This document shows positions 1,385 to 2,957 of a DNA stretch of 28,108 bases, one piece after another (within the stretch, counting starts at the first letter, position 1; every line of letters begins with the position of its first letter). The notes beneath the pieces were generated by a model that was not told where the DNA came from, ran no database searches, and saw only the letters and a program-made list of their open reading frames with translations. Source of the DNA: a virus. Its lineage: Duplodnaviria; Heunggongvirae; Uroviricota; Caudoviricetes. A program made the position numbers and the translations under genes. The DNA lies in IMG/VR virus record IMGVR_UViG_2534682170_000012, one strand, 5' to 3'.

Positions 1385-2035
1385 TTACAAATTAAAAAAC
1401 ATCCTAGAAATGGCTCCGCCTACCAAAACCCCTACGCAGATAAAGAATATTATTTCTTTTGGATAAAATCGGATTAATTCTGAAGCACGAAGGCGGACTT
1501 CTGGTAAGGTCGAATTCTCTGTGTGGCTTGATACCGATTGTTGCTCTAACCACGACAATGCAGACTGTAACTGAGAACGAGTAAGATCGTTTAAACGTCC
1601 TGTACCGAAATTGATATGGCAATACCGCAGAAGTTTTTGTCGAAGTCCACAGTCTTCACTGTTACGTAATAATAAACTTACAAGAGTCTTACAGGCATCA
1701 TGATCTTTACATCGCTCAAGCATTGCATGCAGAAAACTCTCCGCTGTTTTATATTGATTTATTGTCATATCATCAATACCAGCTACACCAATCTCCGCAT
1801 GTACTTTTTGCCAAATAATAAACGCTTCAGTATTGCTAGCTTCTGCAATAGCAGCAACCAAGCTATTTAGCTCCTTACGCTGTGCCTTAAGCAAAGGGCG
1901 AGCGTCATCATCATTATTCGAAGGGATTGCGATATTGACGGTATGAGAACCATCATATCGCTCTATCTGAATATTCTTTTCGTGAAAATCACGCCCAGCA
2001 ACGCGATTGTTTGAACCGTTTGAGTTGACGGCCAT
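1385..2035 (-). CDS. C-terminally membrane-anchored protein of unknown function, lysogeny-operon cargo
   Basis: 216 aa; the only hydrophobic stretch is at the extreme C-terminus (IIFFICVGVLVGGAI). GGAGGGG RBS upstream of the ATG. N-terminal NNRVAGRDFHE motif repeats the repressor C-terminus. Confidence 0.5.
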   Translation of the reverse strand: MAVNSNGSNNRVAGRDFHEKNIQIERYDGSHTVNIAIPSNNDDDARPLLKAQRKELNSLVAAIAEASNTEAFIIWQKVHAEIGVAGIDDMTINQYKTAESFLHAMLERCKDHDACKTLVSLLLRNSEDCGLRQKLLRYCHINFGTGRLNDLTRSQLQSALSWLEQQSVSSHTENSTLPEVRLRASELIRFYPKEIIFFICVGVLVGGAISRMFFNL

Positions 2036-2050
2036 GTCCCCTCCCTACTA

Positions 2051-2455
2051 TCACCTACCCTTAGTTTCGTTATAGTCACGACCAGCGATACGGTTATTAC
2101 CACCAGAAATATTTAACTCACGCCCTGATGGCTGAGTTTCCTTTTCACTGCCCGCACTTTTTAAAGCCCCGATCACCGCGTTTTTTACATCTAACGAAGC
2201 TGCTCGAAAGCGAGTAATCAACTCCTGCTCATCATCGTTATAAGTTTCAGGTGAGTGAATTCCCAACACAACATACTGAACATCAAGGCCAAAACGAGAC
2301 AGCGCTGCCAAATACGCAGCATCAGGAAAGCTATCTCCTTTCTCATATCTAAGCTGAGTTAGCTTTTTGACTCCACCAATTTCGCTCATAGCAACTTGAC
2401 TAAGCCCCAATCTTTCCCTTTCCTCACGCAACCGCTGACCAATATCATTTTTCAT
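2051..2455 (-). CDS. HTH (XRE-type) transcriptional repressor, candidate immunity repressor (P2 C / 186 CI functional analogue)
   Basis: 134 aa; N-terminal IGQRLREERERLGLSQVAMSEIGGVKKLTQLRYEKG fits an XRE helix-turn-helix. First gene of the leftward operon that ends with int, divergent from the early operon. Confidence 0.7.
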   Translation of the reverse strand: MKNDIGQRLREERERLGLSQVAMSEIGGVKKLTQLRYEKGDSFPDAAYLAALSRFGLDVQYVVLGIHSPETYNDDEQELITRFRAASLDVKNAVIGALKSAGSEKETQPSGRELNISGGNNRIAGRDYNETKGR

Positions 2456-2464
2456 ACAAAAACC

Positions 2465-2493
2465 TTGACAGGTATCTTTTTTGATACCAAAAT
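2465..2493 (+). promoter_or_regulatory. Candidate rightward early promoter with operator palindrome (lysis-lysogeny switch region)
   Basis: TTGACA at 2465-2470, a 17-bp spacer, then CAAAAT at 2488-2493. A perfect inverted repeat GGTATC-N6-GATACC at 2471-2488 fills the spacer. Lies in the 75-bp divergent intergenic region. Confidence 0.35.
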
Positions 2494-2753: not shown

Positions 2754-2957
2754 ATGTCAGGTATAACCATCAATATCAATGTGAATGCCCCCTATGTATC
2801 CCTGCAGAAATATGCAGAGATAACAGGTATCCCTCTTAATACATGCAAAAAGATGTTGGCTGACGGTCGAATTATTATCCGCCCCAAACGTGCCAAAATG
2901 GAAAAGCCTGAAGTAAACCTTGTGGCGATGTTAAAAGACGCTTTGGCTAACAGCTAA
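2754..2957 (+). CDS. Small putative DNA-binding protein (excisionase/HTH-like)
   Basis: 67 aa; VSLQKYAEITGIPLNTCKKMLADGRI resembles excisionase/AlpA-type HTH; GGAGG RBS upstream. Confidence 0.35.
   Translation: MSGITININVNAPYVSLQKYAEITGIPLNTCKKMLADGRIIIRPKRAKMEKPEVNLVAMLKDALANS

Follow-up and report, generated by a model that had tools for sequence, protein, structure and literature searches.

A peptide motif shared between the C-terminal tail of a P2-like prophage repressor and the N terminus of its predicted membrane-anchored neighbour

The DNA examined here is a stretch of 28,108 nucleotides, IMG/VR virus record IMGVR_UViG_2534682170_000012 (the window, meaning this whole stretch), which encodes one short peptide motif twice: in the C-terminal tail of a lysogeny repressor and again at the N terminus of the predicted membrane-anchored protein (the partner) encoded directly downstream. 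We propose, with a probability that we put at roughly 0.55, that this repetition marks two matched segments for association, through which the repressor tail pairs with the membrane protein and the repressor is tied to the membrane. That the two proteins bind, how they would do so and which of them controls the other we infer from sequence comparison. The idea of a shared interaction tag, raised in the initial annotation of this DNA, agrees with the comparative data: the motif is conserved in both protein families, the two genes are paired in 80 of 80 enterobacterial loci and the motif co-varies between lineages.

The repeated peptide and its conservation

Both peptides were found on the minus strand, as first described. 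The C terminus of the 134-residue repressor reads ...LNISGGNNRIAGRDYNETKGR, its open reading frame (ORF) closing with GRELNISGGNNRIAGRDYNETKGR and then a stop; the N terminus of the partner reads MAVNSNGSNNRVAGRDFHE, its ORF opening with MAVNSNGSNNRVAGRDFHEKNIQIE. The intervals given at first, 2066-2104 and 1979-2017, do encode the peptides (GGNNRIAGRDYNE and GSNNRVAGRDFHE, respectively) but span 13 residues each, not the 15-16 quoted. We found that the full matching stretch is 17 residues long (LNISGGNNRIAGRDYNE/VNSNGSNNRVAGRDFHE; coordinates in Table 1), with a Smith-Waterman score of 62. This match lies 8.9 standard deviations above that to the shuffled partner N terminus, and when all six frames of the 28-kb window are scanned, the runner-up match to the tail scores 30. 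The statement that the resemblance is not due to chance was therefore borne out.

The initial annotation had also described the underlying DNA as similar and had taken this as a sign of tandem duplication. The DNA evidence for this is weak. The two copies share 27 of 39 nucleotides with a longest identical run of 5 nt, and the same codon is used at four of the nine identical residues (independent codon choice would give about 3.6, a rough estimate), the other five differing. The DNA is alike only as far as the peptides require. A repeat finder run on the window DNA does not list the pair. The similarity is a property of the peptides and not of a recent DNA duplication. A DNA-level repeat or operator was ruled out by these identity and codon data and by the empty repeat-finder result. 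Read-through or a frameshift fusion was ruled out as well: the two ORFs are in the same frame with three consecutive stops between them here, and in other lineages the gap ranges from -3 to +33 nt, with neither frame nor spacing conserved.

Neither copy of the motif has a confident structure in the predicted monomers. In the AlphaFold2 (AF2) model the repressor consists of a helix-turn-helix (HTH) domain (residues 5-64), two helices (74-101) and a low-confidence tail (102-134; predicted local distance difference test score (pLDDT) of about 48) despite the conservation of that tail. The partner model, built from a 61-sequence alignment, has a motif region at its N terminus, a helical Flk_N domain (about 50-172; modelled helices 50-172) and a C-terminal helix at 192-215 that corresponds to the membrane anchor; residues 1-41 have a pLDDT of 40-48 although many are invariant, among them G7, N10, R11, D16 and E19 of the motif. 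Behind the matching copy lies a second conserved segment at residues 22-39, which AF2 models with low confidence and a weak beta bridge (23-24 with 35-36). MAFFT places the single motif of the partners from Pectobacterium and Gilliamella Mu-like phages on this second segment. A search of Protein Data Bank sequences returned relatives for the HTH part of the repressor only (P22 c2), and no solved structure covering the repressor tail or the partner. In Pfam, NCBIfam, PADLOC and PHROGs the partner matched Flk_N and phrog_5825 and gained no functional assignment apart from these.

Nearly every repressor tail continues past the motif into a Lys/Arg-rich end (TKGR here; ENKK, NKKNK, RRRKTK or GGKKRGARK elsewhere), and the partners are without such a stretch. 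Its role may be that of a ClpX-type signal, or it may bind membrane or DNA.

Within the Enterobacterales, repressor homologues end in INVSGxGNR[IV]AGRD[YF][NH]ExKK, and partner homologues (PF27202, Flk_N) open with MxVNSxGxxNRxAGRDFxENxIQIxxFDGRHTINIAIPS. Comparison of 32-34 distinct DNA versions gave the consensus INVSGQGNRVAGRDYNENK for the repressor motif and VNSTGEQNRIAGRDFNENN for the partner motif. Because the invariant residues (G, N, R, A/G/R/D and E) are each encoded by two to five different codons, the comparison indicates purifying selection on the peptide in both copies. All 80 IMG/VR contigs that carry a Flk_N gene have an HTH ORF with the tail ending 9-18 nt upstream. In 29 of these 80 the HTH belongs to another XRE subfamily, with the C-terminal helices and tail unchanged; judged from these sequences, DNA-binding specificity is exchanged while the tail module is retained. 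A close E. coli repressor of 119 amino acids that lacks the tail has other genes downstream and no Flk_N neighbour.

The second XRE subfamily (ARLKAERKRLSLKQ...), with an AGRD tail before the same Flk_N partner, was seen in locus L139, in 28 other IMG/VR loci and at 767-1192 of locus L092 (Salmonella enterica subsp. salamae). In L092, three tandem HTH genes precede one Flk_N gene (767-2801): two have an intact AGRD tail, and in the third the core RxAGRDY is deleted (NISDTGNNENK).

Co-variation of tail and partner across distant phages

Distant relatives of the repressor carry other Gly/Asn/Gln-rich tails. We looked up the neighbours of these relatives and then collected 80 loci by repressor alignment, taking one genome per species. 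In Mu-like (BcepMu-type) prophages and in other prophages of Gamma- and Betaproteobacteria, the tail again resembles the N terminus of the protein encoded downstream in its own locus, and the motif is quite different from that of the window. Tail and partner N terminus read QIFNGDISGQFAGNQIIN and QEFNGTAQGQFSSRDIIN in Pectobacterium, TVDYGNAQIGQASAGDIVN and TVSFGGAQIDQAAAGDINN in Jeongeupia, QQFNGPVGSVTSGDVVN and QQFNGAVEQVAAGDIKN in Pseudomonas, and EQVFHGSVGQAV and KQEFNKPVGQAI in phage BcepMu (gp17/gp18). The corresponding pairs are GEGQIAGGNIY and AEQIAGRDIY in Gilliamella, QVFHGQVGQ and QIFRGQVGQ in Bordetella, and QHGSGMQVGHVS and QTGSGTQFGQVS in a metagenome-assembled Pseudomonadota genome (L041).

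Grouping the pairs into 12 distinct motif classes, which are few and phylogenetically structured, gave a summed cognate score of 549; when the pairings were permuted the sum was 313 +/- 32, and it was never as high as 549 in 200,000 permutations. The own partner was the top-scoring one for 10 of the 12 tails, and scores of the tails against partner residues 61-120 were at background. When 5-kb loci were scanned in all six frames, about 16 of about 20 with a partner had their best match to the tail at the N-terminal end of the ORF downstream, the partner start codons being approximate at some loci. The initial annotation had allowed that homologues might show the motif to be generic, low in complexity and unconnected in the two proteins. 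The opposite was found, with the motif conserved in both families and co-varying between lineages.

The partners themselves are diverse. Many consist of Flk_N and a C-terminal anchor; in those of Aeromonas and BcepMu type, Flk_N is joined by a coiled coil, a membrane span and a C-terminal domain that contains Cys; still others are small and have two hydrophobic spans. A 57-amino-acid ORF in Thiothrix (L035) comprises the motif and an anchor only. In Cellvibrio (L063) and Oleiphilus (L022), two successive downstream genes each open with the motif. The partners at L041, L055 and L083 show no obvious membrane span. The constant features of the partners, as predicted, are the N-terminal motif and, nearly always, a membrane anchor. 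Pfam gave no match in ten partners without Flk_N, and a likeness of the small two-span proteins to SLATT effectors was dropped as unsupported on this account. The Flk_N family is small: in a set of 1.84 billion proteins it makes up 140 clusters when these are formed at 50% identity.

Readings of the paired motif

On the proposed association of repressor and membrane protein, the segment would be short, Gly/Asn/Gln-rich and marked by alternating hydrophobic residues, would have no confident structure alone and would fold on binding. One copy would sit at the free C terminus of the repressor and the other at the free cytoplasmic N terminus of the membrane-anchored protein from the next gene downstream in the operon, and the two would pair like with like, probably as beta strands. 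By binding the tail, the membrane protein would keep some of the repressor molecules at the inner membrane, and the availability or oligomeric state of the repressor, hence immunity and induction, would be coupled to the state of the membrane protein. Control may run in either direction, with the partner sequestering the repressor, or the repressor restraining or activating the partner. If the repressor is tethered or sequestered at the membrane, this may open a way to induction that does not need RecA; the alternative is a membrane effector under the control of the repressor.

The repressor core (RLREERERLGLSQ..., helices 74-101) is nearly constant while the tails differ completely, which makes a tail-specific docking site in the core unlikely and favours pairing of tail with motif. 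The minimal Thiothrix partner, with motif and anchor only, was counted in favour of direct pairing of like with like. Several observations weigh against the association that we propose. The tail occurs without a partner in Xanthomonadales-type loci and in Pseudomonas phage Komp_PAO1_1; pairing of the motif in homologues, which the initial annotation had asked about, is thus complete among the 80 enterobacterial loci but not beyond them. Because the tail occurs alone, it appears from these comparisons to be the older element, one that must serve the repressor by itself too. The enterobacterial copies are similar, not identical, and do not track each other residue by residue (NRVAGRDYNEN occurs with NRISGRDFNEN), so that the specificity suggested by the sequences is at the level of the motif class. 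No terminator-like site was seen at the repressor-partner junction and the two proteins are probably made from one operon in a fixed ratio, which makes simple sequestration odd unless a signal acts on the partner.

A related possibility, which we regard as a minority reading but the strongest of the rivals, is amyloid-like (prion-like) signalling. The motif would then be a templating unit of the HET-s/NWD2 or bacterial BASS type, clustered copies of which nucleate a cooperative cross-beta fold that converts the other protein; the outcome would be activation of a membrane effector (exclusion, abortive infection or lysis) or the driving of the repressor into inactive assemblies (induction). Among known systems, the pairs of this type (fungal HET-s/NWD2, PP and sigma; bacterial BASS1-10; Bab/Agp with BASS11) are the closest in kind to the present one. 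As in those pairs, a motif of about 20 residues, rich in G, N and Q and here of low confidence as a monomer, is shared by the C terminus of one protein and the N terminus of its collinear neighbour, with a gap of a few nucleotides or an overlap (-3 to +33 nt here), and it was this layout that revealed such motifs (bioRxiv 10.1101/2020.01.06.895854). One side targets the membrane, and partner domains are exchanged in a modular way: one motif protein goes with interchangeable membrane-targeting partners, sometimes two per locus. There is also a precedent in a prophage, since amyloid signalling by the E. coli prophage pair Bab/Agp with BASS11 was shown experimentally (bioRxiv 10.1101/2024.11.07.622273). 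The two conserved N-terminal segments of the enterobacterial partner, versus one in the repressor, would fit as well.

The phi-Q-phi-G core noted in RHIM, PP and BASS3 is present in a subset of pairs (GSVQVGYAGGNV/GNLQVGIAHGDV and GSGMQVGHVS/GSGTQFGQVS). It is found in a minority of tails and partners, and the window motif, NRIAGRD, is without it. The enterobacterial motif is also more charged than typical BASS motifs, and its two copies carry the same charges (R, R, D and E), which in-register parallel stacking would be expected to superpose like on like. The proteins differ from those of the known pairs too. The upstream motif protein here is a DNA-binding lysogeny repressor with an XRE HTH only and not a Bell or HeLo effector, and a small membrane protein, either tail-anchored with Flk_N or of the two-span type, takes the downstream place of an NLR/STAND or TPR sensor; no NLR/STAND or comparable oligomerizing sensor was found, and the partners gave no NACHT, NB-ARC or Bell match. 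The hosts differ as well, being temperate phages of Gamma- and Betaproteobacteria. That phages of Proteobacteria use an amyloid-like motif in a repressor and an adjacent membrane protein as a switch, with cooperative co-assembly of the two termini leading either to RecA-independent induction in P2-like and Mu-like phages or, upon a change in the repressor, to firing of a membrane effector, is a conjecture to which we likewise give a low probability.

Recognition of both termini by the same third factor (a protease or adaptor that reads a degron, a chaperone or a phage antirepressor), resulting in joint control or in a partner that acts as a decoy, is less likely than the amyloid variant, and we consider it improbable. 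Chain termini are typical positions for degrons, repressor tails end Lys/Arg-rich and Ala-Gly, the dipeptide at which LexA-type repressors are cleaved, is part of the motif; ClpX recognizes MuA, and the C terminus of the Mu repressor is involved in ClpXP control. A conserved host factor, however, would not demand a motif that differs completely between lineages yet is matched within pairs. A phage factor would need to travel along, which is unlikely because the pair of genes has moved among unrelated phage backbones and has different neighbours in each (P2-like versus Mu-like). The basic extreme end, moreover, is on the repressor and not on the partner, and the repressor has no S24 peptidase domain. 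Less likely still, and in our estimation very unlikely, is a functionless evolutionary footprint, whether a remnant of tandem duplication or of fission of an HTH-to-anchor gene, or copies kept alike by gene conversion. The window ORFs share a frame, with the copies 87 nt apart. In the enterobacterial partner, moreover, the matching copy is an extra N-terminal segment before the stretch that aligns with the single Mu-like partner motif, which suggests one past duplication event in the enterobacterial lineage. Against this reading stands the strong purifying selection on both copies, and matched pairs with unrelated motifs and unrelated partner folds would call for many independent duplications. 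The shared DNA runs of at most 5 nt are too short for conversion, and five of nine identical residues differ in codon. Gene fission was ruled out, as no fused HTH and Flk_N protein was found among the 140 family representatives. The earlier suggestion that a rearrangement created the unusual repressor tail lacks support for a further reason: such tails are ancestral in the repressor family and occur in partnerless repressors as well.

Genomic setting, known systems and significance

The repressor and its partner belong to a run of four co-oriented genes on the minus strand at 1-2455 (Table 1). Divergent from these, from 2531 onwards, are an Arc-like gene and a Cox-like gene (both PHROG hits) and P2-type replication genes. 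The first 8 kb match Escherichia phage 520873 (Peduoviridae, Xuanwuvirus) with 94% identity over 83% of the length. The layout is that of a P2-like (Peduoviridae) immunity region, in which the repressor faces int and is divergent from the cox-like gene, with P2-type replication and late genes adjacent. The window is a P2-like (Xuanwuvirus) prophage; given the phage 520873 match and the int and Cox-like gene context, the XRE protein is therefore its immunity repressor.

Table 1. Coordinates of the repressor-partner locus and its surroundings in the window
Feature	Position	Strand	Remarks
Tyrosine integrase (int)	1-1002	minus	
DUF2511 protein with signal peptide	1008-1355	minus	phrog_2950
Partner, 216 aa	1385-2035	minus	phrog_5825 (E=2e-101); homologues are Pfam PF27202 (Flk_N)
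Partner second conserved N-terminal segment, IQIERYDGSHTVNIAIPS	1919-1972	minus	residues 22-39; I24, D28, T32, N34 and P38 invariant
Partner N-terminal motif, VNSNGSNNRVAGRDFHE	1979-2029	minus	residues 3-19; copy matching the repressor tail; pLDDT 40-48
Spacer between repressor and partner	2036-2050	minus	after the repressor TGA: in-frame TAG TAG, GGAGGGG Shine-Dalgarno, then partner ATG
Lysogeny (immunity) repressor, 134 aa, XRE-family HTH	2051-2455	minus	Pfam HTH_31/HTH_19/HTH_3; phrog_8
Lys/Arg-rich repressor end, TKGR	2054-2065	minus	follows the tail motif
Repressor tail motif, LNISGGNNRIAGRDYNE	2066-2116	minus	residues 114-130; pLDDT ~48
Promoter-like site	2465-2493	plus	
Operator-like inverted repeat, GGTATC-N6-GATACC	2471-2488		between the repressor and the Arc-like/Cox-like genes
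20-nt copies related to the inverted repeat	2438-2457; 2823-2842		

Between int and the partner gene lies the DUF2511 gene, probably a moron with no relation to the module, since Mu-like versions of the latter are without it. Of 5426 complete E. coli genomes, 524 carry the repressor-partner segment; hosts of the module also include Klebsiella, Salmonella, Yersinia, Pseudomonas and Burkholderia (BcepMu gp17/gp18). When 50,697 deposited phage genomes were searched by tblastn with the partner, Escherichia phage 520873 was the sole match. In that record (NC_049344.1, 1001-3447) int is annotated as two pieces and the partner gene is unannotated, the partner being matched only as four tblastn pieces; this suggests frameshifts or sequencing errors.

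We also compared the pair with known systems other than amyloid signalling. Type II toxin-antitoxin operons with an HTH antitoxin (HigA, HipB or MqsA type) likewise have an XRE-type protein with a disordered C-terminal extension encoded directly upstream in one operon, but the repressor here stands at the immunity position of a P2-like or Mu-like switch (int/cox; BcepMu-type c-repressor). The partners gave no toxin or defence-family match in Pfam, NCBIfam or PADLOC. Membership of this class was rejected, there being no toxin-family partner and the HTH gene lying at the lysogeny switch. To our knowledge, antitoxin tails do not resemble the N terminus of their own toxin. The partner shares its Flk_N helical domain and C-terminal tail-anchor topology with Flk, a flagellar biosynthesis regulator of Salmonella and E. 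coli. Unlike the partner, Flk is chromosomal, has about 330 amino acids, starts MQPxSGPG... with a Pro-rich stretch and is without the N-terminal motif. A full-length Flk assignment (NF007987) was rejected, as NCBIfam gave 55.4 bits against a cut-off of 353 (E=6e-15, residues 38-168 only).

A self-cleaving repressor of the LexA/lambda-CI type was rejected as well: the motif contains AG, but Pfam finds no S24 domain and the protein ends 10 residues later. Repressors can be inactivated by sequestration, as when Qtip of vibriophage VP882 acts on that phage's own cI. VP882 Qtip/cI and the Mu repressor tail with ClpXP resemble the arrangement proposed here in that control is exerted through protein contacts or a C-terminal tail and not through RecA-stimulated self-cleavage. 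Their proteins are non-homologous to those described here, and the present partner, unlike theirs, is membrane-anchored and co-transcribed with the repressor. We know of no shared terminal motif described in either system.

P2-like prophages are classically not SOS-inducible, and the sensing of cell state by Mu-like repressors is partly understood. In the full-text literature we found no account of a motif pair in a repressor and a membrane protein or of phage Flk_N proteins, although journal coverage was partial and an earlier description is possible. An amyloid-like pairing here would be the first found in anything other than pairs of an NLR or TPR sensor and a death effector; amyloid signalling would then reach beyond NLR/effector immune pairs and into the decision between lysis and lysogeny. 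The module is common and very small, with a motif of 17 residues. Its conserved, co-varying peptide link points to an undescribed layer of lysogeny control, or to an exclusion or abortive-infection function wired to the repressor.

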